Virus record (IMG/VR): IMGVR_UViG_3300045988_076196
Location: 1-64,000 of that record
Reading direction: 5' to 3' (one strand)
Length of the DNA: 64,000 nt
Source of the DNA: a virus
Below, piece after piece: positions 2,998 to 53,976 of this stretch. Position numbers and translations under genes: made by a program. Within the stretch, counting starts at the first letter, position 1. Each line of letters begins with the position of its first letter. The notes below the pieces were generated by a model. That model had not been told where the DNA came from, searched no databases, and saw only the letters and a list, made by a program, of their open reading frames with translations.

Positions 2998-4667
2998 TTA
3001 AAATATTCACTCCAATCAATTTCATTTTCATTTGGCTTATCAATAATCTCATATCGCTCAATAATAGCTTGTGGCTTAATCTGTCCATTATATTCGTTCA
3101 ACCCAAGTGATACTACTACCTCTATAGATTTACCTTGAGCAAATTCAAATTGATTTGCTTCTTCATTATTAACAAAGAATTTTATGAACTCAATGCCATC
3201 CTGAACCAGCTTTACAGTAGTTGAGCGATTACGATAGATATAGATTTGAGGTGATGATAGGGTTAGATGGAATAGTGGCTTTGGTGTTCCTGTCCCCCAT
3301 AGGATATTATTTTCTACACACACATTTGCAAGATTGCGTGTGATATTATTAGGTTCGATCTGAGCCGCAACCTTAATATCTGGTTCTACGTCCAAATCAA
3401 GCCCATCTAAGAATCGTGCAAATCTCTTGAGATTGCTTTTCTTTACTGTGATACCAGCTGCGGCATCATGCCCTTGACATTTAGCCAATCCTGATTCATT
3501 GATAATCTCAAGCAAATCAATAGGACTACGCATTGAGCCAGACCATGTTGTGCTGTTTAGCTCTCTTAGCAGGAATGTTGGCTTATTATATTTACCACAG
3601 AATTTATTTGCTACAAGCCCTAAATAGGACTTATTCTCAGGTTCACCAAATCCGATAATGACTTTATGAGACGTATCAAGCCCATCTGACAGTTTATCTA
3701 CGACTTTCTTAACTTGATAATCCTGCTTAGACTTTACGGCTTTCATAGCTTTCACAGCCGCTTCTGGCTCAATCTTACCAATCAGCGCATCAAAGAATAG
3801 CCGCTTAGTAGATTGGTCGTCACTACGAGCAAGTGCATTAGCAAGAGGCGCAATACCAAATGCAACACCCTCTGGATTAACGCCACGATTGCAACAATGC
3901 TCTAGGCAGTATTTGATGAATGGATTAGTTGGATTGGTCAAGCCGTCATATATATATTTGCGGTTCTCAGGTGAACGCAAGCTGCAAATATCAGAGATTA
4001 GGCTAATGGCTACTAAATCTTTGAAAGATTGAGCAGAGCCAAGCGCACAAGCAAATTTTTCTACAACGCCCGTACCGCTAATATCTGTGTTGATATTTGG
4101 TGTATTATCGGCTCGATATGGGTTGATTACTGTAGCATATCTATTTTGCTTCTCAATAATATGATGGTCTAAGATGATAATATCAATTCCCATACACATC
4201 AGTTCTTCACATTGGTATGTATCATTTGACCCGGCATCTGGCACGATTAGTAAATCTATCTCATCAATAGCGATTTGACTTGCTAGGTCTGATAGCCCAT
4301 GCTCTTTACCAGCGTGAGAGTAGATATGAATATCTTCTAACCCGTTCTCAATACATAGCATATAGACGATAGCCGCAGAACAAGCACCGTCCATATCGGA
4401 ATCAATAACAATACCAACAGAGCCTTTAGTGTGATTGAATAAATTTACAGCCACATCCATATTCTTATACATATTAGGCGATTGATATTCAATGCTATCT
4501 GGATTTAGATATGCGTCAACATCAGCTATGCCACAAGCAGATAAATATTCCCTTAAAAATGTGGTTTCATTAAGGGAATCAAGTAGTGGATGAATCTTAA
4601 TCTGAATCACCATCCTTTTCTGGTAAGTTGATATATGCCCACTGGTCATTATATAGTGCGTCGCCAA
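2994..4667 (-). CDS. DHH/DHHA1 phosphoesterase, RecJ-like ssDNA exonuclease
   Basis: motifs DSDMDG, VPDAGS, ILDHH and QGHDAAAG; start uncertain (TTG 4667, ATG 4649 or ATG 4613). Confidence 0.85.
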   Translation of the reverse strand: MATHYIMTSGHISTYQKRMVIQIKIHPLLDSLNETTFLREYLSACGIADVDAYLNPDSIEYQSPNMYKNMDVAVNLFNHTKGSVGIVIDSDMDGACSAAIVYMLCIENGLEDIHIYSHAGKEHGLSDLASQIAIDEIDLLIVPDAGSNDTYQCEELMCMGIDIIILDHHIIEKQNRYATVINPYRADNTPNINTDISGTGVVEKFACALGSAQSFKDLVAISLISDICSLRSPENRKYIYDGLTNPTNPFIKYCLEHCCNRGVNPEGVAFGIAPLANALARSDDQSTKRLFFDALIGKIEPEAAVKAMKAVKSKQDYQVKKVVDKLSDGLDTSHKVIIGFGEPENKSYLGLVANKFCGKYNKPTFLLRELNSTTWSGSMRSPIDLLEIINESGLAKCQGHDAAAGITVKKSNLKRFARFLDGLDLDVEPDIKVAAQIEPNNITRNLANVCVENNILWGTGTPKPLFHLTLSSPQIYIYRNRSTTVKLVQDGIEFIKFFVNNEEANQFEFAQGKSIEVVVSLGLNEYNGQIKPQAIIERYEIIDKPNENEIDWSEYFN

Positions 4668-4827
4668 CAGACCCGTCAGTACCTAACCAAATAAGCCCAT
4701 CTTCCGCATCTTTATCTTCTTCTAGGCATCCAACATATACGTCTGCATAGTCAGATAAAGAATCGCATACTAACACGTCAACTTCATATGGCGGTAGTTT
4801 ATCCACAATTTTATGCCATTCAATCAT
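4597..4827 (-). CDS. hypothetical protein (76 aa)
   Basis: ORF on the operon strand; ATGA-type overlap with the upstream gene. Confidence 0.5.
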   Translation of the reverse strand: MIEWHKIVDKLPPYEVDVLVCDSLSDYADVYVGCLEEDKDAEDGLIWLGTDGSVGDALYNDQWAYINLPEKDGDSD

Positions 4828-5219
4828 TCTTTCTCTCCTCCAATCTTAAATAGTCTACCTTTCTTAGCTCTAAGATAACCAAAACGGTATGCTAAAGCAA
4901 TAGCTTTGACAACTTCATCTGCATTGAACATTGTATGGTCACGATAATAATAGTCATATTTTAGAACGTCGGCATTGTTCAGCTTCGGCTTGAGCATGGT
5001 ATAGATTTCATCATCTGACAACGCATACTCATCGATTTTAACTAGCTTATCTTCATCATAGTTATATCCAGACAGTTGCATTTCATATACTTTCTTTTTA
5101 TTAAATGCAACAAAGACATGACAACCATACTTGTCTTCAACGATACAATTAACCTCGCCAATTTCTTCATCTGGTTTGGTTGTGCGCGCTACCTTATCTC
5201 CTACTTTGAATTTACTCAT
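4824..5219 (-). CDS. hypothetical protein (131 aa)
   Basis: AAGGAGG RBS; first ORF after promoter 5253..5281. Confidence 0.65.
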   Translation of the reverse strand: MSKFKVGDKVARTTKPDEEIGEVNCIVEDKYGCHVFVAFNKKKVYEMQLSGYNYDEDKLVKIDEYALSDDEIYTMLKPKLNNADVLKYDYYYRDHTMFNADEVVKAIALAYRFGYLRAKKGRLFKIGGEKE

Positions 5220-5252
5220 AATAAAATCAACCTCCTTATTGTTGATATGGCA

Positions 5253-25895: not shown

Positions 25896-25980
25896 TGGTC
25901 TGCGTGGTCGGACTCCAACCGACAAGGCTTACGCCGCCGCATTTTGAGTGCGGTATGTTTAGCAATTTCATCACACGCAG
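25896..25980 (-). tRNA. tRNA-Leu(CAA), class II, with a swapped C19:G56 elbow pair
   Basis: perfect acceptor CUGCGUG/CACGCAG, A73, encoded CCA; anticodon arm CCGCA-CUCAAAA-UGCGG; long variable arm GGC-GUAA-GCC; T loop UUGGAGU. Confidence 0.75.
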
Positions 25981-27381: not shown

Positions 27382-27474
27382 TGGTACTGGCGCTCGGACT
27401 CGAACCGAGATTTTGCGGCAATCGACCACTAAACTGTGTATAGGACAGCTGGCTTACCATTAACCGACACCAGC
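27382..27474 (-). tRNA. class II tRNA with the non-canonical anticodon loop CCUAUAC
   Basis: acceptor GCUGGUG/CGCCAGU (2 G.U pairs), A73, encoded CCA; D arm GGUU-AAUGGUA-AGCC; T arm CUCGG-UUCGAGU-CCGAG; about 23-nt variable arm; C at position 33. Confidence 0.6.
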
Positions 27475-41369: not shown

Positions 41370-42551
41370 TTATTCATCCTCCTCATTTTCATCACAATCT
41401 GCATTTACGAAATGGACATCTACGTTAAAAATTTCTTTCAATACATCAATAGCCTCTTTTGGCTCGATGCGGAAAAATTCTCTATCGGGGTTGACCCGCT
41501 CTTTGTCAAAATATTTGTGGATATTATTTTCTAGCTCAAAGCAATCATCGCTAAATACGAAGCAATGAGCATGATATGGCTCTGGCAAGCTGCTAGAGCT
41601 GAGTTCGCGAACCCTCAATGCAGGATTCAATCTTCTGGTGCAACCTAGCTTTACCAATCCGGGCAAACTTGGTGATGTGATTACATATAGCCAACCAGCT
41701 TTACTATGTGACTCACGATAAGCAATAGAATCAAGTCGCTTATCAATACTAGCTAATTGAGATTTAATCCTATTACGCTCATCATCTGTTAGTGCTTTAT
41801 CAAAGGCAATATTCATTGCTTTCTTTTCTTCCAACAATTTCGCGCGTTCTCTAGCAATATCAGCAAGCAACTGCTCCTGTTCTCTTAATCTGCGCTTTTC
41901 TTCACGGATTCGCGTCTTTTCTTCTTTTTGCTTAACTTTAATAGCCAAGTTAATATCAAGCATATCAAGCCGCGCTTTTACATACTCAGCATTAAGCGCC
42001 AATCCGACTTTATTTGCTTTAGACTGATAAGAATTAAATTTATTCTTAATCAATTCTTTACTTTTAGCAATATTGCCTGTTGTTACAGATTTTTCTTTAC
42101 TGTCAATATATCCGGACATTGCGTAGCACAAGCCTCTACCGTACACGTCCTGCATTTCTTTGCCACGTCTATTTGAACCATTTAGAGTGTATCCTTGCTC
42201 TATACGATATAGTCCAGTACTTACGGCAGATTCGATTTTGTCTTGTAACTGATAACGCCGATGTTCGAGTTCATCCAATGAATCTTGGTAATATGGAATA
42301 TTATAATCCTGCATTTCTTCAATGGTATGAATTTTGCCATTTAGAGCATCAAGGACAGATTGAGCTGCTTTTGCAGATCGCATGGTGTTTTCATATTGAT
42401 ACGCCGCAATTTGCCGATGTTCGTCATAGTTATCAATCTCTGCTTGTATACTAGAAATATCTGCTTTAAGTTGAGCAATCTGTGCTTCAAGCTCTTTCTT
42501 TTTCTTGTTCATTTTGAAAATCTCGAACACGTCTAGCTGTCTCCTTGTCAA
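41370..42551 (-). CDS. coiled-coil (DUF4041-like) + T5orf172/MUG113 (GIY-YIG-like) domain protein
   Basis: long N-terminal coiled coil; C-terminal GWLYVITSPSLPGLVKLGCT...REFF. Confidence 0.7.
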   Translation of the reverse strand: MTRRQLDVFEIFKMNKKKKELEAQIAQLKADISSIQAEIDNYDEHRQIAAYQYENTMRSAKAAQSVLDALNGKIHTIEEMQDYNIPYYQDSLDELEHRRYQLQDKIESAVSTGLYRIEQGYTLNGSNRRGKEMQDVYGRGLCYAMSGYIDSKEKSVTTGNIAKSKELIKNKFNSYQSKANKVGLALNAEYVKARLDMLDINLAIKVKQKEEKTRIREEKRRLREQEQLLADIARERAKLLEEKKAMNIAFDKALTDDERNRIKSQLASIDKRLDSIAYRESHSKAGWLYVITSPSLPGLVKLGCTRRLNPALRVRELSSSSLPEPYHAHCFVFSDDCFELENNIHKYFDKERVNPDREFFRIEPKEAIDVLKEIFNVDVHFVNADCDENEEDE

Positions 42552-42923: not shown

Positions 42924-42952
42924 TTGACAAAGTGATGAATATATGGTATAAT
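42924..42952 (+). promoter_or_regulatory. rightward sigma70-type promoter
   Basis: TTGACA 42924..42929, 17 nt, TATAAT 42947..42952. Confidence 0.7.
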
Positions 42953-43049: not shown

Positions 43050-43078
43050 TTGACATATCTATCATAATATGATATAAT
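43050..43078 (+). promoter_or_regulatory. rightward sigma70-type promoter upstream of the RNAP operon
   Basis: TTGACA 43050..43055, 17 nt, TATAAT 43073..43078. Confidence 0.7.
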
Positions 43079-43107: not shown

Positions 43108-43251
43108 TTGTGGAGCGAAATGAGCTATAACTGGTATGTATCGGAAGATACAGAACCAGAAGTATGGGATGATGAATATGAGCCAACTGAGCGCGATTGG
43201 TCGCTTTGGATATATGGTAGTTCAGAGAATGATTTAGAGGTGATTTTTTGA
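43108..43251 (+). CDS. 47-aa acidic Trp-rich protein, translationally coupled to the RNAP gene
   Basis: AAGGAGG then TTG 43108 (or ATG 43120); stop overlaps the RNAP TTG start (TTTTGA). Confidence 0.45.
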   Translation: MWSEMSYNWYVSEDTEPEVWDDEYEPTERDWSLWIYGSSENDLEVIF

Positions 43252-45131
43252 GCCTACAGACGCAAGTTTATTTGCATTCAGTAGATACGTCATGCTTTTA
43301 TGATGACAACGAAATGACGCTACATAGACGGCTTGTTCGGTTATATTCTTTGCGTAAGCGATGGAAGGATAGTGATAAACCAGATTGGCGTATCAAGTCT
43401 GTAAATCGTTTGCTTAAAAAAGAAAAGGTGCGACTATCTGAATTGCTCGATGATGCAGTGAGACGAAATGAAACTAGAAAATTGCGTCAAGATGCTGTGA
43501 CCGATAAAACGGTTGTTAATCTATTTGAATCTGACTTAACACGCAGCTTAGGACTTGACCCGTTCAAGTTGACAGATGAGCTGTTCATCATTAACGTATT
43601 TTTCTTTCAGGTATTTAATAATCTAGTTCATCAAGGATTTATTTACAATGGTGAAAAATATGTGTTCCTTACAGCATCAGCTGGACAGATAAGAACGAAA
43701 AGAGCCGTATTCGTTAAAGAATCGTCGTTTAAGCGCATTGAGCAAAAATTGATGTGCGGCTTGACCATAGACGAAATCAATGAGCGCGGAGGCATGAATC
43801 AGAATAAATTCCTTGCATATTTGGCGCTTATGAACTCTGCCACAGATGTTTGGGAAGATTTTGATATTGACAAATCAATCGTAGTAGATGATTGGGAAAC
43901 GGCTGTTCCGGGATTGGTTGATCATATTGATGGCGTATCGTATGAGATTCGGCGCGAAATGACAGAGACGATTATTCCTCATATGGACGGATGCGGTATT
44001 ATGCTCAATGAAACAACAAGAATGGTGCGTATGCCATGGGTAAAGGGATTACTTGTTACATTTCCGTTTGATAAGTTTATCAAAGAAAAATGCGGTGGCG
44101 AGGCAACAGTAACGGATATTTATGGCAATGAGCATAAAATTATAGAGGAAGATATACGGTATATATTCACAAAAAGCCAATTCAAGCTATGGAAATTTTA
44201 TGATTCGTGGAATTGTTATAAGGCGCGATTCAAAAATTTTGGATGCAATGCTTGTTATTGCAACATAGAAGAACCGTATATTCCAAAGAGCCGCATCAAT
44301 TATCAGATGCTTCAAACCTTGAGTGATATGACTGATAATGAGATTGATCGCATTATTTCTAAGACTGCGCAAGAGATTGACGATGTTGGTAAAGATTATC
44401 AAGTTACTATGCGGTTACTTGGCGCAACAGAGAACAATCGTTATAAATCAGCTATGCAAGAGGCGTTGCTGATTTATCCTGAATTATTCAAAGATTCATA
44501 TAATCGAGAAATTCTGAAGCAGACTAAAAAGAGCCTAGTTAAACAAGCCAAAGGTGGGCGGCTTAGAGTAAATGGGAAATATTTATTCTTAGCGCCTGAC
44601 TTGTATGCGTTTTGTGAATGGCTGTTCCTAGGTGAGCAGAATCCACAGGGACTGCTTGCAGATGGTGATGTATATACTAATCAATATCGTGATGGTGATG
44701 AATTAGCTTGTTTGCGTTCTCCGCATTTGTATAGGGAATGGGCAATTCGGACAAATAGGCGTAGCTTAGAGCTTGATTATTGGTTTGGTGGAACTAAGTG
44801 TATATATACTAGTTGTCATGATTTAATAACAAGGATAGTTATGGCGGACTGCGACGGTGATAAATTATTGGTTGTAAAAGACCGAACATTGACAAATTGT
44901 GCGAAAAGGAATATGTCTGATATTTGTACTTTGGCATATGATCTCAAAAAGGCGAAGGGAGGTTTGGTAAATTCAGATAGCTTATACGAAGGAATGATTA
45001 GAGCATATACCGGTGGCAACATTGGTATTTGGAGTAATCAAATAACTAAAATTTGGAATAGCGGGAATATTACTAAGGAAGAATTGGACGTTGTAAAATG
45101 GTTGTGTTTTGAGAATAATGCAGTAATTGAT
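43248..45131 (+). CDS. YonO/RdRP-like single-subunit RNA polymerase, exon 1
   Basis: ASAGQIRTKRAVFV and the metal-binding loop MADCDGDKLLVV (DCDGD = nt 44847..44861). Confidence 0.8.
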
Positions 45132-46162
45132 TAAATGATAGTCCACTCATGCGGCAACGCATGATGTGAATGATGGTGAACTCGTAAATGCGAGGTGTGC
45201 GGAGAAATCCGTGCTAACGGTAAAACCCTAAACGTATGAACGCATGGCAATACCGTGGCAAGATTGTGTGATAAATATTAAGATGAAAGGAGGGACAATA
45301 TGAGAAAGATTAGTTTGATTGGCAAGAAATTTGGGAGATTGACGGTTTTATCTGATGCTGGAACAAAAGGTGGTAGAACATATTCTAACTGTCTATGCGA
45401 TTGTGGTAAAATGGTGGTAGTTAGTAACAAACATCTAAAAAGTGGGCATACAAAATCTTGTGGATGTTATAAAAACGAAATTATTGGCGAAATTGGTAAA
45501 ATAACCGGCAAGACAAATATCAAGTATGCGCAAAAGCAAGCACATGAAAATAATAGAAAACATGATATGTCTGGAACAAGATTGTATAGAATTTGGTTAC
45601 AGATGAAACAGAGATGTCACAACGAGAAGAACGACAGGTATCAATATTATGGCGGTAAGGGCGTTTGCGTTTGTGATGAATGGAGAGAAGATTTTCAAGA
45701 ATTTGAACAATGGTCGAATAACAATGGATATAGAGATGACTTGACCATTGATAGAATAAATTCTAATAAAAATTATGAACCGTCTAATTGTCGTTGGATA
45801 TCTCAAAGTGAAAATAGCGCAAGAATACATCGTGATGTGAGATACTGGTGTATTGATGTACAAGGCGGAAGATATGCAGAATTTGACAATATTAGAGAAT
45901 TTTGCAGAAATAATCCTGAGATCGCAAATGAGAATCATGTGAGATACGCTGTTAGCGGAAAATGTGAAAATCAAGGCGATATTATATTTGGCAAGTTTTA
46001 ATATTTTATCACACAATAAGCTGTAACGACTAGCCCATTAGGGCGTAGCTTGTAGGTGAAATTCCTACTCGCAAAGTGCCATCCATCTCTATGAGATGAA
46101 GAGATAGTCTACTCCGACTGTTTGAGCAGTGTTAAAGTATCTCGAAAGAGACGGTATGAAGG
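45132..46162 (+). mobile_element. group I-like intron carrying a homing endonuclease ORF
   Basis: exon 1 ends in U and the intron ends in G. GNRA-capped hairpins at 45148..45163, 45200..45211 and 46140..46151. A 12-bp helix (45264..45275 / 46005..46016) closes the ORF-bearing loop. Confidence 0.7.
45300..46001 (+). CDS. intron-encoded homing-endonuclease-like protein
   Basis: AAAGGAGGG RBS; CLCDCG...SGHTKSCGCYKNE; LTIDRINSNKNYEPSNCRWIS; paralog of 11837 and 12554. Confidence 0.75.
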   Translation: MRKISLIGKKFGRLTVLSDAGTKGGRTYSNCLCDCGKMVVVSNKHLKSGHTKSCGCYKNEIIGEIGKITGKTNIKYAQKQAHENNRKHDMSGTRLYRIWLQMKQRCHNEKNDRYQYYGGKGVCVCDEWREDFQEFEQWSNNNGYRDDLTIDRINSNKNYEPSNCRWISQSENSARIHRDVRYWCIDVQGGRYAEFDNIREFCRNNPEIANENHVRYAVSGKCENQGDIIFGKF

Positions 46163-46852
46163 TATGCTAAGACGCAATGGTTGCCAGAACGACCAAAACA
46201 AATCAATAATACAATTAAACAATATACAAAAGCCCGTGTTCCAAATTTCTTTCAATATGCAAAAGACAAAGACCCAGATACCCAAGTTGAGCCAGCCAAC
46301 AATTCAACCATGAATCGTATCTCAGCTAAAATCCCTACTTCCAGAATCCGCTATAACAATAAGATTGGGAAATTTGACTGGACTATGCTGATAAATAAAT
46401 CGGTCGATTATACTACTAGAGAAAATTCTTCAATCATTGAGCGGTATAATTGGTGGATATGGAATCAGCGCCGATTTGATTATGGCGATGACCCGCATAT
46501 CAATGAGGATGATTTATATAAATATCGCTGCATTGCACAAGATATAGTAGAATATAGCAACGAGCCACTAGATATTGTGGTGAATAGCCTAGTTGCTTAT
46601 CTATACACAGTTAAAAAATCAAGTAATAAGAAAATGCTATGGGCTTGTTTTGGTTGGACGATTGTAGAAAATTTGAGAATCAATACAGCGCAACTTAATC
46701 CAATCTGTTCCATTTGTGGCAAGCGGTTTAAGCCGAGAGATGTATGCCAGCATTATTGCTCAGAGGAATGTTACAAGAAAGCAGATAATCAGCGGCGCAT
46801 TGAGTCGCGTGAAGCCCCACCTGTCCGCACGGGGGACATGTTAAAACAATAG
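46163..46852 (+). CDS. YonO/RdRP-like RNA polymerase, exon 2
   Basis: frame open from 46160; joining to exon 1 gives ...ENNAVID|YAKTQWLPERPK... Confidence 0.7.
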   Translation, partial: YAKTQWLPERPKQINNTIKQYTKARVPNFFQYAKDKDPDTQVEPANNSTMNRISAKIPTSRIRYNNKIGKFDWTMLINKSVDYTTRENSSIIERYNWWIWNQRRFDYGDDPHINEDDLYKYRCIAQDIVEYSNEPLDIVVNSLVAYLYTVKKSSNKKMLWACFGWTIVENLRINTAQLNPICSICGKRFKPRDVCQHYCSEECYKKADNQRRIESREAPPVRTGDMLKQ

Positions 46853-46921: not shown

Positions 46922-47341
46922 TTGCATAAAAATAAATATCCTCGGCTTGGTAAAGCTGACATGAGTAAAGAGTTGCGGCGGCGCACAGGTGTTGATTCTA
47001 AGATTATTGAGCTAGTGTTAAGAAACTATCATGACATTATTCGTGAGACACTACAACATGGCGTGGAATATTCTTTGCCCGATATTGGTGTTATTACATT
47101 TCGCGACCACCCACCAAAGCCAGCTGGCGAATATTGGAACGGATTCCAAAAGCGGCGTATGTACTATCCTGACAGAATGGGATATTATCGACTAGAGTTT
47201 AAGGCTGAGAAACATATGGCAAGTGCTGTTAAAGGTGGCACATTGTATGGGAAAGGCGCAACTAAAGAGGAATATGATGCTTGGGTATTGGAGAATTATC
47301 CTGATAATCCCAAGTTTATGAAGGAAGAAGAAGATGGCTGA
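46922..47341 (+). CDS. DNABII (HU/IHF)-like protein, divergent
   Basis: GGAAAGGAAAG RBS then TTG; HU-like pattern KELRRRTGVDSKIIELVL...LPDIGVITF. Confidence 0.55.
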   Translation: MHKNKYPRLGKADMSKELRRRTGVDSKIIELVLRNYHDIIRETLQHGVEYSLPDIGVITFRDHPPKPAGEYWNGFQKRRMYYPDRMGYYRLEFKAEKHMASAVKGGTLYGKGATKEEYDAWVLENYPDNPKFMKEEEDG

Positions 47342-47897
47342 ACATAATAAGCTGAATCAGGAATTTTATGTTTATGCTGGTGGATTGCTCAATGTATCGC
47401 CCCAGACCGCCAAGAAATACTGGATGGGGTTTGTTGATACTATTATTCATATTCTTCATTTTGATGGCAAGTGTCAAATGCCAAGCATAGGCACATTTAC
47501 GTTAGAAGAATTGCCTGAGCGCAGAGTGATGGCTAAGAATGAGCAGGGTGAACTTGTTGAGCAAATCAACCCTGCTTGGTTTAAGATATTATACAAATAC
47601 AATGAGGATTTTCTTAACAATGTCAATGGGCGTGGCGTTACAAAGAAATATCGTAGGCGCGTCCGTGAACGTAAATTAACACCAAACGATCTCAAGCTAA
47701 TTACTCAAGCAGAAGCAGAACGAACAGCAAAGCGCACGTTGAAACAGATGCAAGATGACCGCATTGAGCAAGCAAGGCAACAGAGCTATGATGATTTTAT
47801 CAATGTGATCAACAAGAAAAAAGAAGACTATGAACGGAAAAAGAAGGAAAAGGAACAGAAATTGAATGAATCTACAGAAGATACGACAAGCGACTGA
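47334..47897 (+). CDS. DNABII-like protein with a charged C-terminal extension
   Basis: HU-like core ...MPSIGTFTLEELPERR...; K/E/R-rich tail. Confidence 0.5.
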   Translation: MAEHNKLNQEFYVYAGGLLNVSPQTAKKYWMGFVDTIIHILHFDGKCQMPSIGTFTLEELPERRVMAKNEQGELVEQINPAWFKILYKYNEDFLNNVNGRGVTKKYRRRVRERKLTPNDLKLITQAEAERTAKRTLKQMQDDRIEQARQQSYDDFINVINKKKEDYERKKKEKEQKLNESTEDTTSD

Positions 47898-49065
47898 GCT
47901 GCTAGATAGCAAGTTGATTGACTTGCAAGAATGGACGGCTCGTTGTCTTGGTGAAGATTATAGGGGTGTCTGGTCAGAGGAATATTTACGTCGATGTGCT
48001 GTGTTTGTAAGAAATATGCTCAATAGTGCAGACGATTGTGAATCAGACGAAAAAGACACCAATATTCTATCACAACTCAGAGAGGCTAAGCAGGAACTAG
48101 AGAAATCACGTCTTAAACTGCGCACAGAAAATCTTGAATATGCGGCAAATATGCGCGAGGTGGCACGACATGATATGCTTAATGAAGAAATTGTCGCAGC
48201 TATCAATCGGCTTGAACCAATCAAGTTTAGTCGTAAATTCGAGCCAGACCCAATTAAAGAGCAAATTGGTGTGTTGTGTATTGGCGACGAACATTATGGC
48301 ACAATGATTGATATGGATTCATTATTTGGTGAAAAGGTTAATGTGTATAATCCTGACGTATTCAAGGCGCGAATGGAAAAGCTGATGAATAATATCGAGG
48401 ATGACGCATATTCCGTATCAGCATTCAGCCGTTTGGTTGTGTTTGATATGGGGGATTCCATTCAGGGCGCACTTAGATTATCAGACCTTATGAAGCTCAA
48501 AGCTGGTATTGTAGATAGTGCTATGCAGTATGCCGAATATATCAGTCAATGGCTAGTTGAATTGAGTGAACGTCTACAAGTGCCGATTGAATATATCGCA
48601 GTTGGTGGTAATCATAGCGAATTGAGACTACTCAATGGCAAGAAGGGCGATTTCCAAGAAGATAACATTGCTAAGATCATTACACAGATTGTGCAGTTGC
48701 GACTTAAGGACAATCCAAACATTGAGGTTGCACCATATGCTGAATGTGGGTTTAAGTCAATTCAAGGTGTGAATATCCTAGCATATCATGGTGACGATAC
48801 CAAAGATGTAACTAGAGAAATCGCGTTCTTTGAGGATTATCATCAGATTGATATTGACATTCTACTACTTGGACATTTCCATCATCTTGAGCAACAGTCA
48901 GTTGGTATTGGTTTGAATACTGAAAAAGAGGTCATTAAATGTCCGTCCATTGTTGGTATTGATGATTATAGCAAGAAATGCCGCAAGTTGTCAAGAGCTG
49001 GTGCATTGCTCATGCTGTTTGAAGATGGGCAAAAGACGTGGACTAAGAAATATATTTTGAATTGA
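47866..49065 (+). CDS. calcineurin-like metallophosphoesterase
   Basis: GDEHYG, GDSIQG, GGNHSE and GHFHH motifs. Confidence 0.75.
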   Translation: MNLQKIRQATELLDSKLIDLQEWTARCLGEDYRGVWSEEYLRRCAVFVRNMLNSADDCESDEKDTNILSQLREAKQELEKSRLKLRTENLEYAANMREVARHDMLNEEIVAAINRLEPIKFSRKFEPDPIKEQIGVLCIGDEHYGTMIDMDSLFGEKVNVYNPDVFKARMEKLMNNIEDDAYSVSAFSRLVVFDMGDSIQGALRLSDLMKLKAGIVDSAMQYAEYISQWLVELSERLQVPIEYIAVGGNHSELRLLNGKKGDFQEDNIAKIITQIVQLRLKDNPNIEVAPYAECGFKSIQGVNILAYHGDDTKDVTREIAFFEDYHQIDIDILLLGHFHHLEQQSVGIGLNTEKEVIKCPSIVGIDDYSKKCRKLSRAGALLMLFEDGQKTWTKKYILN

Positions 49066-50403: not shown

Positions 50404-52248
50404 ATGAAGAGTCAAATGGGAGGACTTCGTAGGAAGTTTATGTCCAACCACTTAATCACGACCGAGGCATGGTCTGGTAAAAGCAAATCGGAAGAGAAAG
50501 AGCAAAACGCAATAGAGTGGCTGACTCTTTTTTAGTTCCGTAGGAATTGGCACATATATGTAGATATGGTGCTTGGTATTAAGCTAAGGCCATTCCAGAT
50601 GGTTATGATATATTTAATGGGTATATCTCCATTCTTTTATGCAATCTGTTCTAGAGGTTTGTCAAAATCATTTATGGCTGGACTTGGAGCAATATGTAAG
50701 ATGAATCTATATCCGTATAGCGAGATTGTTATTACATCGTCTACTGTTCAACAGGCTAATAAATTAGCTGATAAAAAGATACGCGATGAAATAATTAAGA
50801 AGCTCTCAAGTTATTTGTTATACATGTACGAGCATGAGTATATAGTTATAACAAAGCCGGATGATGGTACAAAGATAGAAAATAAGTTAAATGGCTCAAC
50901 TATTGTTGTATTGCCGTGTACTGAGGCAAGCCGTGGTGAACGTGCAACACTGCTTATTTATGAAGAGGTGCGTTTGCTTAAAAAGACAATTCTTGATGCG
51001 GTCTTTGAAAAGATGCCACACCCAAGACAGGCCAAATATATGGATAATCCTGTTTATGGGAATAATAAACGATGGATTGAAGAATGCCAGCGTATCTACA
51101 TTACGTCCGCAAGATATAAATATGAATGGTTTTGGCGTTCTTTTAAGAATGTGTTCACTCAGCATTTTATAGACAAGCGCGTCAATCATAATGTTTTTGC
51201 TGGTGATATATTTATGGCAATAGATAATCGCTTAAAGACGTGGGCTGATTATCGCAAAGACAAGGCGGAGTCTGAGATGGATTGGAAAATGGAAGACCTC
51301 AACCAGATGATAGGCGAGGCTGAGGATGCGTTTTTCACATACGAGCAATTTAAGACAGCGCAAATTTTACAGCATTGTTTTAGACCTCTTACATACCTTG
51401 ATTTCTTCTCTGGTGAACAGGTTGATTTTCCAGAGAAAAAGGAAGATGAAGTGCGACTCGTTGTGGTTGACTACGCATTTTCCAACACTACTGGTTGTAC
51501 AAAGAACGACAATACCATTATTACGCTCATGTCGGCGCATTGGGATAAAAAGAAAAATCGGTTTGAACGTCATATTGATTATATAGAGGGACATGATGCT
51601 TCTGACACAATAGGCGCATCTGATAGAGCGAGATACTTATGGTGGGTATATGATGCGGATTATCTATGTCCCGATGGACGCTCTGGTGGTGAAGTTCTAT
51701 TCAATCATATGACAGAGCCATTGTCTTGGCCGGAATTAGGACTTAGGTGGAATAAGCACGGATTAGGTCTTGCAGATAAATACCAGATGGTTCCACAAGC
51801 AAAATTGGATGATTATAGAAGTCGTGTCGTTGACAAAGATGCAGTTCCAGCTATTATACCCGTGATAGGCACACCAGAGTTGAACTCTACTGGTTGGTTG
51901 TCACTGCGTAAACAGCTTGAAACTAACAATATGAAATTCCTTATTTCTATGCAAGATTATCAGAATGAGCTAACAGATAGTGGTGAATATTATAAATATA
52001 CTGCTGAAGAATTAGTTAATCAGCTTGAGCCATACGGACAGACAGATATGACAATCATAGAGGCAGTTAATCTAAAGACGGTTATTAAGCAAGATAAAAT
52101 CAAACTAGAAGAACCGCGCACAGGAACTAAGGATAGAATTGTAACCATTATGTATGGAAATTATATTATTGACTTGATTGAGAACGCATGGCAACAACAG
52201 TTACAAGAAGATGAGTTTGATGTTGATTCGATTCAATTAGTATATTAG
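50404..52248 (+). CDS. terL: terminase large subunit with an in-frame TAG at 50533..50535
   Basis: LGIKLRPFQ, Walker A-like CSRGLSKS, Walker B LLIYEE. The uninterrupted ORF is 50566..52248; the RBS (GGTGGTG) precedes ATG 50404. Confidence 0.8.
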
Positions 52249-52398
52249 TATTTGCCTATGAAGCGGTAGCTATGTTGGTGTGTTGCCGTGGAGGCACTAT
52301 TAGGGTTGTGTGGAATCCAAGTTCCAACTGAGGCTTAATCAAAAAAAGTTGAAAATAAAAACACTCAAAAAATATAAAACAAGGAAAGGAGGTTGAAG

Positions 52399-53976
52399 AT
52401 GCCAAAAAATAATGAAGATGTGAAGCTGTCTAAAAATGACCTTCAGGATATTATTGATTTTAGTGCAGGTCTGATGGCGGTTGATAATTTTTACTCACCA
52501 TTTCTGAGCAACCAGCTATTGACCAATCTAAACAATAATCCTCGTCTACCTAATGCAGAGGCGGTAAAAAAGGCGCTCAATGATTATAAGAATAGCGGCG
52601 CCGATTTACAGGGTTTTGTAGAATTTGCATCAGCGTTTGATATGATTTTCAAGCGCACTTTATATTCTTATGCAAATGCGCTATCTTTCGACCTTCAGAT
52701 AACGTGCAAAAATGCATATACAAAGGGCGACTATGAATCAGAGGAATATAAGAAAGACCGGCAGACAGTAGATAATTTCTTGACCAATTTTGATTACAAG
52801 AAAGAATTTTATAATGTTCTGCTAAATGTCTTAAAGCGCGACTCATATTTTACTTGGTTTAGAAAGACTAAGAGCGGTAATCGCGGCAAGATGAAGTATG
52901 CTCTACAAATTATGCCACAAGATTATTGTATGCTTACGGGGTACTTTGAAAAAGGGTTGCTGTGGTCTTTTAATGTACTGTATTTTATGCAACCGGGCGT
53001 AGATATTGAGGGATTTGACCCAAGTCTCAAAAAGACATATCTTGATGCGATTGAAAATGCTGAGTTAAATTACAAGCCGTCTGCGCCACTCGATAAACGT
53101 AATGGTAGTTATGCTCTATGGGCAGATGTATCACCACTTAATGGTGCTTATGCTTGGAAATTTTCTACAGATAACTTTGCTAACAATCCATTCTTATCGC
53201 CATATGTAGCAAATGTTTTACGTAGTGATGAGGTTGGAGAATTACAGTATAACAAAGATCTTATCTCTGCGGCTGGTATTCTAGCTGGTGAGATTAGATT
53301 ATTTGATTCAGCCAAGTCAGGCACGAAGGCGAATCAGTTCGCCATTGATCCGAAAACGCTTGGTGCATTTATGCAAAAGGCGGCTAATGGACTAAAGAAT
53401 GCTGCCAAACTAGCAGCTATACCACTTGAGAATATTAAATATTTCCAATTTGAGGATAAGAACCCAAATAGCTATACAAATGAGCTAACTACAACAGCTG
53501 GTATTGGTACTGGCATTAGCCGTGTTATCTATTCATCCGATAAGATGAGTAATGCTGAACTAGAGGCGGCGCTTAATGAGGTCTATCAGACCATGAAGCC
53601 AATGTATGCTCAGTTCAATAATTTCCTTGATTTCTATGTGAATCAAATGACAAGCAAATATAAGTTTAAGTTTGAGTTTGTTGGTTCTAACTATCAATTT
53701 GAGCGCGATGCTAGATTTGATAAGATGATGAAAATGGCTGATAAGGGGCTTGTACTCAATTCATCTGCATGGGCTAGTGCTGTTGGTATGAACCCTGTCA
53801 CATTTGATAGGATGCTTGCTGAGAGTAAATATACTGGATGGATTGATAAGTATTCGACCATGATGCTTAACGCTAATACATCGTCTTACAAAGATAATAA
53901 GGGCGGGCGTGAACGCAAGAACGCTAGAGATTTGACCGATTCAGGCGAAGCAAGCCGAGAAACATTAGAGGAATGA
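52399..53976 (+). CDS. portal protein (by position and size)
   Basis: 525 aa directly after terL; AAGGAAAGGAGG RBS 6 nt before ATG 52399. Confidence 0.6.
   Translation: MPKNNEDVKLSKNDLQDIIDFSAGLMAVDNFYSPFLSNQLLTNLNNNPRLPNAEAVKKALNDYKNSGADLQGFVEFASAFDMIFKRTLYSYANALSFDLQITCKNAYTKGDYESEEYKKDRQTVDNFLTNFDYKKEFYNVLLNVLKRDSYFTWFRKTKSGNRGKMKYALQIMPQDYCMLTGYFEKGLLWSFNVLYFMQPGVDIEGFDPSLKKTYLDAIENAELNYKPSAPLDKRNGSYALWADVSPLNGAYAWKFSTDNFANNPFLSPYVANVLRSDEVGELQYNKDLISAAGILAGEIRLFDSAKSGTKANQFAIDPKTLGAFMQKAANGLKNAAKLAAIPLENIKYFQFEDKNPNSYTNELTTTAGIGTGISRVIYSSDKMSNAELEAALNEVYQTMKPMYAQFNNFLDFYVNQMTSKYKFKFEFVGSNYQFERDARFDKMMKMADKGLVLNSSAWASAVGMNPVTFDRMLAESKYTGWIDKYSTMMLNANTSSYKDNKGGRERKNARDLTDSGEASRETLEE

Follow-up and report, generated by a model that had tools for sequence, protein, structure and literature searches.

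The gene under study lies on the plus strand of a 64,000-nucleotide (nt) stretch of viral DNA, positions 1 to 64,000 of IMG/VR record IMGVR_UViG_3300045988_076196. The whole stretch is called the window here. The gene codes for an RNA polymerase of the YonO type and is interrupted by 1,031 nt which contain an open reading frame (ORF) of their own. The upstream ORF (43248..45134) starts with TTG, encodes 628 amino acids (aa) with ...ENNAVID as the last residues and is closed by TAA at 45132-45134. It contains the segment ASAGQIRTKRAVFV (aa 143-156, nt 43674-43715) and the catalytic-loop sequence ADCDGD (aa 533-538, nt 44844-44861; the D-C-D-G-D part is 44847-44861), both already pointed out in an earlier note on this DNA. 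From 46163 on the frame is open again (YAKTQWLPERPK). When 45131 is joined to 46163, the result is 2,574 nt, i.e., 857 codons plus a stop codon. Very probably this is a two-exon YonO-type gene which harbors a mobile group I intron and is spliced to an 857-aa polymerase. The window derives from an uncultivated tailed phage in which the YonO-type polymerase, encoded in two exons, would by analogy with the Bacillus phage SPbeta be the late-gene enzyme. All coordinates are collected in Table 1.

Identity of the polymerase

The spliced protein is 44% identical to YonO from SPbeta (SPBc2) in one unbroken match covering residues 3-827. The SPBc2 yonO gene is uninterrupted. Matches to other SPbeta-like phages extend over residues 3-852, and with YonO included the coverage is 96-99% of the length. 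Exon 1 matches positions 2-644 of the 847-position PHROG family phrog_8308 (E = 3.5e-214) and exon 2 takes over at positions 645-845; the halves abut exactly. The Pfam family PF05183, RNA-dependent RNA polymerase (RdRP), scores 37 bits with the spliced protein versus 32 bits with exon 1 alone at a cut-off of 23.8.

An AlphaFold model of the polymerase, built on a shallow alignment, has a mean predicted local distance difference test score (pLDDT) of 69. It has 13 significant PDB matches, and all are QDE-1 or plant RDR2. These fold alignments span 379-990 columns, 12 of the 13 spanning 814-990. Sequence searches of the PDB with the spliced protein and with a 22-member profile yielded nothing meaningful. 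Within the DxDGD signature D534, D536, G537 and D538 are invariant among the aligned full-length relatives. By homology the enzyme is a YonO-type single-chain two-barrel polymerase. The YonO/RdRP assignment of the earlier note is thus borne out by identity, by the Pfam score and by the fold matches to QDE-1 and RDR2. YonO of SPbeta carries out DNA-dependent RNA synthesis and transcribes the late genes, which depend on it (PMC5467207).

The exon junction

The last base of exon 1 is T (45131) and the last base of the intervening stretch is G (46162), in agreement with the earlier assignment. The predicted ligated sequence of the window is ...GTAATTGAT/TATGCTAAG..., the slash marking the junction. 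SPbeta reads ...ENNFTID/FAKTLFMP at this position. An intron-less metagenomic relative of 856 aa with 93% identity (P0001) reads ...ENNAVID/CAKTQWLPERPK; such relatives run NNAVID/CAKTQWLP unbroken. Across the intron-less homologs the pattern is ...ID/xAKT... with C, Y, F, A or Q at x. On the DNA level the intron-less relative L009 has AACAACGCCGTTATAGAT/TGCGCTAAAACGCAA at the site. Altogether, 70 of 80 IMG/VR relatives have no interruption at this point.

Alignments of 22 and 24 full-length relatives show N624, I627, D628, K631 and T632 to be invariant and A630 to be invariant or nearly so. The block interrupted by the insertion is therefore among the most conserved in the C-terminal third. 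Homology of exon 2 begins exactly at 46163, ahead of any start codon. Only the pairing of 45131 with 46163 yields a U·G pair, a terminal G and a restored Asp628 together. The abutting phrog_8308 halves and the continuous intron-less homologs uphold the exact junction and the 857-aa product proposed before. The earlier note also likened the junction to a block AVDF(P/A)KTG of cellular RdRPs; the conservation demonstrated here is that among YonO relatives.

An exact search of IMG/VR for the ligated junction gave no match. The corresponding search for the exon-intron junction retrieved the contig of L006, an intron-bearing relative, and L086. The latter was discarded as an unrelated chance match, two genes overlapping there by their stop and start codons. 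The junction region was also used as a protein query for ligated or intron-less versions with the window's exon signature. This was uninformative, as most matches were downstream exons of genes split at DxDGD and the best hit was 89% identical.

Structure of the ribozyme

For a structural comparison seven introns were aligned, with ORF-bearing loops replaced by GAAA. The structure was written by hand, with P3 and P7 pseudoknotted. Over 13 helices 95.8% of the cells pair versus 33-47% in slid controls, in which the 3' strands are offset by 1-3 columns; the paired fraction is inflated as the structure was derived from the very sequences used for counting, a bias which affects the compensatory changes and the slid controls much less. 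Compensatory changes on both sides are present in 40 of 67 pairs, and 0 of 500 shuffles reach the observed values. The U·G wobble at the 5' splice site (alignment columns 10/21) is invariant in all seven introns and is present in the minimum-energy fold as well. P3 exists in the versions GAUGG/CCAUC, GUCAG/CUGAC, UCUGG/CCAGA and GCUGG/CCAGC. At the position of P6a the ORF-less ortholog L029 has a helix of 14 base pairs (bp). The two extra hairpins which follow the 5' strand of P3 are conserved in the intron family of the window; the Rfam consensus is devoid of them.

After deletion of the ORF the window intron has a folding energy of -106 kcal/mol compared with -76 +/- 5 in shuffled sequences (z = -5.8; 0 of 100 equal). 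The minimum-energy fold independently gives P1, P2, P3, both extra hairpins, P4, P5, P6/P6a, P7.1, P7.2 and P8. Rfam RF00028 scores 26.6 bits in the window (E = 2.7e-4; the match is split by the ORF), 36.9 bits with the full model on the ORF-less L029 (E = 5e-8), 19.7 bits in phage phi3T, 29.2 in L011 and 24.5 in L024; all these scores, though significant in the window and L029, are below the gathering score of 50. The covariance model suggested in the earlier note thus gave a significant match that stays under the family threshold. The RF00028 model contains neither P7.1/P7.2 nor equivalents of the two extra hairpins. It is the presence of P7.1/P7.2 which places the intron in subgroup IA.

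By its covarying P1-P9 architecture, the U·G pair and the terminal G, the intervening stretch is a group I intron for which splicing is predicted. This is what had been claimed before, and the three GNRA-capped hairpins and the 12-bp helix cited at the time are present where they had been placed. Early guesses for P3, AUGGCA/UGCCAU in the window and UCAGCG/CGCUGA in phi3T, were abandoned; they occupy non-equivalent positions, and GAUGGUG/UGCCAUC covaries in all seven introns. An intein is ruled out, as the junction has a stop codon and the ORF is out of frame. A group II intron was rejected as well: a reverse-transcriptase ORF is lacking and the Rfam group II match is negligible (E = 3).

The protein encoded in the intron

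The intron ORF matches PHROG families labelled HNH endonuclease (phrog_374, E = 3e-64). Its relatives at E <= 1e-5 number more than 6,800, nearly all without a Pfam domain. Its structural model has a pLDDT of 87. The sole significant PDB match is the homing endonuclease I-HmuI (1U3E; Foldseek E = 3.9e-4, probability 1.00). A profile of 42 ORF sequences matched 1U3E only (E = 0.0023); a single-sequence search of the PDB returned no match. The family motif LTIDRI..NYEPSNCRWI.QSEN aligns on LVVDHKDGNKDNNLSTNLRWVTQKIN of I-HmuI, and Asp151 and the Asn of ...SEN are retained. The N-terminus has zinc-ribbon-like repeated CxCxCG...SCGC (CxCxC...CGC) modules. Between the window and L006 the ORF has 26 synonymous versus 11 non-synonymous codon differences. 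This preponderance of synonymous changes indicates that the ORF is under constraint. Fold and gene position support the designation as a putative homing endonuclease, the activity of which is not assured.

Introns in other yonO-type genes

The same codon boundary is occupied in GenBank records of the Bacillus phages phi3T, SPR, Goe11, Goe14, BUCT083 and SPbetaL3-L7. These yonO insertions are annotated as two or three ORFs, never as an intron; in Goe11 they appear as yonO_1, hypothetical and yonO_2. The phi3T intron is ORF-less and measures 400 nt, its exon junction being ...ACTATCGAT/TTCGCAAAA...; the predicted spliced product of phi3T has 839 aa. In Goe11 and BUCT083 the intron is 1,290 nt long and its P5 loop houses an ORF, which the BUCT083 record labels as GIY-YIG nuclease. 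In IMG/VR, L029 has an ORF-less intron of 326 nt at the same boundary and L006 has one of 1,032 nt; the latter shares its ORF with the window intron, to which it is 94.5% identical.

The insertion points correspond (...ATC GAT/TTC GCA... in the Bacillus phages, ...ATT GAT/TAT GCT... in the window), and the ribozymes are homologous, with the common 5' end UAAAU..AUAGUC, P3 to P9, and the 3' end GGUAU.AA.G. The differences are in the cargo and the periphery. The window ORF is I-HmuI-like and resides in the P6a loop, whereas the ORF of Goe11 and BUCT083 is in the P5 loop and phi3T has none. The window intron further has an additional P9.1 hairpin and a shorter second extra hairpin, and the host genes are only 44% identical.

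Two further sites are in use. Four nt upstream (GTG AT/A GAT) introns of the same ribozyme family carry a different ORF of about 264 aa in the P5 loop. Two of these, in L011 and L042, have an A at the expected 3' splice position (...UAUAUAUUA/C GAU). The third site follows the first Asp codon of DxDGD (TTC GAT/.../TGC GAC GGA GAT) and is occupied by group I-like elements in L038, L041, L042 and L053. The window is without this element; its flank is ITRIVMADCDGDKLLVV versus ISRYLMFD.DGDKALVV in the carriers. Among the 120 closest protein clusters 27 have a length of 626-671 aa and another 27 of 490-567 aa. All 13 which were inspected end at an intron site.

Mobility and shared ribozyme modules

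Compared with intron-less relatives, to which the window is 87-88% identical overall, identity drops from about 90% to 0.60-0.77 in 90-nt windows roughly 170-350 nt upstream of the site and is back to 0.91-0.94 immediately downstream. With the intron-bearing L006 the same upstream windows are 0.90-0.99 identical. On the protein level the window and L006 have ...LVNSDSLYEGMIRAYTGGNIGIWSNQITKIWNSGNITKEELDVV... in common; intron-less relatives have ...LLNPDSMYNGMVNAYTKGNIGPVSNNITKIWNSGEITQEELDVV.... The upstream dip together with the match to L006 is the pattern expected of co-conversion of the flanking exon during homing. It points to a co-converted exon upstream of the intron, consistent with homing.

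The stretch from J8/7 to the 3' end of the window intron is 88-92% identical to sequences in many Firmicute phages; in phiNIT1, SIOphi and their kin this sequence interrupts the DNA polymerase gene. The phiNIT1 match is inside a split DNA polymerase gene, directly after an ORF annotated as 'SPO1 gp31.2-like' endonuclease; it ends ...GAGACGGTATACAGG, the window intron ends ...GAGACGGTATGAAGG. In phiNIT1 (L005, 1461-3231) the DNA polymerase gene is broken by about 1.8 kb with two ORFs, an 'RNA maturase' and the 'SPO1 gp31.2-like endonuclease'. The nearly identical 3' ends suggest that ribozyme modules are common to introns of different genes. A near-identical DNA search of the whole feature in 50,697 phage records gave only matches of about 60 nt to intron cores, and the phage is absent from that collection.

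Transcription and neighbouring genes

The promoter evidence is a consensus scan only. Two perfect promoters upstream of the polymerase gene probably provide for transcription of the pre-mRNA by the host RNA polymerase. This intergenic region has two more perfect sites on its minus strand, and another six are in the minus-strand early region. From the polymerase promoters to 62.5 kb the plus strand has no 12/12 site and a single one of 11/12 (at 51830). There is no depletion of weaker consensus-like matches (94 vs 72 +/- 7 in shuffles). The near-absence of sigma70 promoters asserted earlier is roughly right; it holds for perfect sites and does not extend to weaker ones. The layout fits the SPbeta model in which YonO transcribes the late operon (PMC5467207). 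An antisense perfect TTGACA-18-TGnTATAAT site was seen at 48994-48965 (minus strand) within the plus-strand late gene 47866-49065.

A 47-aa ORF at 43108-43251 (plus strand), without a family match, shares 4 nt (TTGA, with the start codon) with the polymerase gene and has the position of yonP before yonO in SPbeta. The product of the divergent neighbour at 41370-42551 (minus strand) is 393 aa long and bears a T5orf172/MUG113 domain at its C-terminus (E = 1.5e-16). In the late region a 'drum RNA' (Rfam RF02958, 49.7 bits, gathering score 43) is at 52253-52369 (plus strand) between the ORFs 50566-52248 and 52393-53976. The early region has two tRNA genes on the minus strand, tRNA-Ile(TAT) at 27382-27474, unusually long with 93 nt, and tRNA-Leu(CAA) at 25896-25980.

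Table 1. Features of the interrupted polymerase gene in the window and intron positions in IMG/VR relatives (relatives are given as name:coordinates).
Feature	Position	Strand	Remarks
Two perfect sigma-A/sigma-70-type promoters with TG extension	42924-42952, 43050-43078	+	TTGACA-17-TGnTATAAT, 12/12 consensus
Exon 1, YonO-type RNA polymerase gene	43248..45131	+	628 codons; holds ASAGQIRTKRAVFV and ADCDGD
Group I intron, subgroup IA-like (predicted)	45132..46162	+	1,031 nt; in-frame TAA first, G last
P1	45129..45143	+	exon GAU and intron UA (45129-45133) pair with guide UAGUC (45139-45143)
P2 hairpin	45148..45163	+	CAUGCG-GCAA-CGCAUG; compensatory changes in 6/6 pairs
P3, 5' strand	45172..45178	+	GAUGGUG; pairs with 46077-46083; four compensatory versions
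Two extra hairpins between P3 and J3/4	45181-45194, 45197-45214	+	second GAAA-capped, 7-bp stem (CGGA-GAAA-TCCG at 45200-45211)
P4, short P5 and 5' strand of P6	45218..45259	+	P4 45218-45222/45251-45255 enclosing P5; P6 5' strand 45257-45259
P6a	45264-45275/46005-46016	+	12-bp exact helix; loop contains the ORF
Shine-Dalgarno sequence	45286-45294	+	AAAGGAGGG; strong
Intron ORF, putative homing endonuclease	45300-46001	+	233 aa; in P6a loop
Ribozyme core, 3' half	46020..46109	+	P6 3' strand 46020-46022; P7 5' strand 46028-46032, with G-C pair 46028/46109
P7.1, P7.2	46033-46044, 46048-46072	+	both covarying
P3, 3' strand	46077-46083	+	
P8	46085-46097	+	
J8/7 and P7 3' strand	46098-46109	+	
Peripheral P9 hairpins	46117-46130, 46140-46151	+	second GAAA-capped
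Terminal G	46162	+	
Exon 2	46163..46852	+	229 codons and stop; starts YAKTQWLP; Cys-rich CxxC...C module at end
HU-type DNA-binding protein gene	46922..47341	+	position of yonN after yonO in SPbeta; syntenic context, outside the intron
Introns at the site 4 nt upstream	L024:4730-5871; L033:4739-5900; L011:4730-5839; L042:5699-6808		
Element at the DxDGD site	L038:4451-5417		canonical HNH ORF 4603-5250 (...EVNHKD...NLEWLSHKDN)

A proposed mechanism and its rivals

We propose the following sequence of events. Host RNA polymerase would start at the two consensus promoters at 42.9-43.1 kb. Ribosomes on exon 1 would stop at UAA, a codon which is in fact formed by the first three intron bases, and this would leave the ribozyme free to fold. 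P1 would form from exon ...GAU and the guide UAGUC with U·G at the cleavage site, next to the P3-P9 core with P7.1/P7.2, as indicated by covariation. According to group I chemistry free guanosine would attack at 45131/45132 and exon 1 would then attack after G 46162. The ligated exons would restore the invariant ...NNAVID-YAKT... and encode the 857-aa polymerase, which in analogy to SPbeta YonO would transcribe the downstream structural genes. The ORF in the P6a loop would be translated from its own strong ribosome-binding site; the most likely role of the I-HmuI-like protein is to nick alleles without the intron in co-infecting relatives. Repair would then copy the intron and neighbouring exon sequence, i.e., homing. 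Here, the co-conversion footprint is observed, the enzyme activity is predicted.

Several points weigh against this reading, among them the inflated paired fraction and the sub-threshold Rfam scores. Splicing itself is a prediction from sequence. Two hairpins between P3 and P4 are foreign to the standard group I model. The polymerase model is poor near the catalytic loop (pLDDT < 50 at residues 442-545). The intron ORF is without a Pfam or NCBIfam match at E <= 1. Arg152 is at the position of His75 in I-HmuI, the general base of a D-H dipeptide, and 42 of 42 aligned homologs have this Arg. The equivalent change in PhiPA3 gp210, H82R, abolishes nicking (PMC11620839). Because of the Arg at the catalytic-His position nuclease activity cannot be assumed. 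The earlier claim of an intron-borne homing endonuclease is therefore sustained as to the I-HmuI likeness by fold and profile, not as to catalysis.

The Arg and the low Rfam scores might be taken to signify a decayed element, in which the intron no longer splices or the endonuclease is dead; the consequence would be a truncated polymerase or none at all, or an immobile intron. We consider this highly improbable. Every core helix is intact in the window intron, and the two exons, which are conserved, show no damage. As the Arg does not vary in a family of more than 6,800 relatives, it is a family trait, not decay. The mostly synonymous differences of the ORF from L006 and the co-conversion footprint, which indicates homing in the lineage of the window, speak the same language. 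Even less credible is a gene in pieces, i.e., a polymerase split by a free-standing endonuclease gene into polypeptides of 628 aa and about 223 aa (from TTG 46181) which assemble without splicing. In its favour, the GenBank records of phi3T, Goe11 and BUCT083 list separate ORFs, exon-2-like proteins form a PHROG family of their own (phrog_37506), and an in-frame TTG is located six codons into exon 2. Yet the ORF-less introns of phi3T and L029 retain intervening RNA at the same site, this RNA has a covarying group I fold, the stop of exon 1 is exactly at the junction with exon 2 homology resuming before any start codon, and TTG 46181 has no ribosome-binding site at a useful distance.

The excision of a mobile group I intron from a two-exon gene is necessarily required for the full-length enzyme. 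Whether the phage goes beyond this requirement and uses splicing efficiency to time or gate late transcription is another matter. Such a regulatory checkpoint might seem attractive with a polymerase gene behind two host-type promoters, no perfect plus-strand host-type promoter for the next 19 kb and the dependence of the SPbeta late genes on YonO (PMC5467207). We regard it as very unlikely and as speculation. The intron is dispensable, being absent from the site in SPbeta and in most of the IMG/VR relatives, and its patchy presence with different ORFs in different loops is as expected of a selfish element. This distribution gives no indication of a checkpoint, and no regulatory element was found.

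Comparison with known systems

The window intron is akin to those of the SPO1/phiNIT1 type, Firmicute-phage group I introns in a polymerase gene, and the only structural relative of its ORF is I-HmuI; the link to SPO1 runs through the 'SPO1 gp31.2-like' annotation in phiNIT1. It differs by the host gene, the N-terminal zinc-ribbon-like modules and the Arg in place of the catalytic His. PhiPA3 has an intron with the HNH-family endonuclease gp210 in a virion RNA polymerase gene, beside the codons for the catalytic aspartates, and in a competing phage it is the allele without the intron which this endonuclease attacks (Birkholz et al. 2024, PMC11620839). This is matched by the relative L038 with its intron right after the first Asp codon of DxDGD. 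In contrast, the PhiPA3 gene encodes a subunit of a multisubunit-type polymerase in a jumbo Pseudomonas phage, and the window intron is 94 codons downstream of the catalytic loop.

Group IA introns of the T4 td type are self-splicing and interrupt essential phage genes, with ORFs looped out from peripheral helices. The same is true for the self-splicing group I introns of SPbeta bnrdE and bnrdF (PMC8270828). The likeness of the td and bnrdE/bnrdF introns to the window intron is one of kind, and the host genes differ. Clearly, group I introns which carry an endonuclease gene and interrupt a conserved phage gene are a classical kind of element, selfish and familiar. The sense of novelty in the earlier note was too high, considering that the same site is occupied in GenBank phages and that the PhiPA3 RNA polymerase intron has been described (PMC11620839). 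In the literature searched, with most subscription journals outside its scope, no description of a yonO intron was found; Forrest et al. 2017, PMC8270828 and bioRxiv 10.1101/2021.11.22.469490 do not mention one.

Implications

The immediate consequence is one of annotation. The late-gene polymerase should be entered as one 857-aa protein instead of two 'hypothetical proteins'. Entries for phi3T, SPR, Goe11, Goe14, BUCT083 and SPbetaL3-L7 need the same correction, as does a large share of the metagenomic relatives; in the set of the 120 closest protein clusters, 54 have a length so short that they could end at an intron site. Neither Pfam nor NCBIfam has a model for the large I-HmuI-like family with Arg for His, the activity of which deserves a test. 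Further, phi3T, a model phage for lysis-lysogeny signalling, carries the orthologous ORF-less intron, which makes splicing, its effect on late transcription and marker exclusion against SPbeta testable in Bacillus subtilis.

Tentatively, and as a possibility we do not rate as likely, YonO-type genes may constitute a contested target of mobile introns, with at least three sites and three kinds of endonuclease genes in different loops. By analogy with PhiPA3 these elements might serve as weapons between co-infecting phages. The very large Arg-fixed family, moreover, may be a nuclease which is active in a non-canonical manner.

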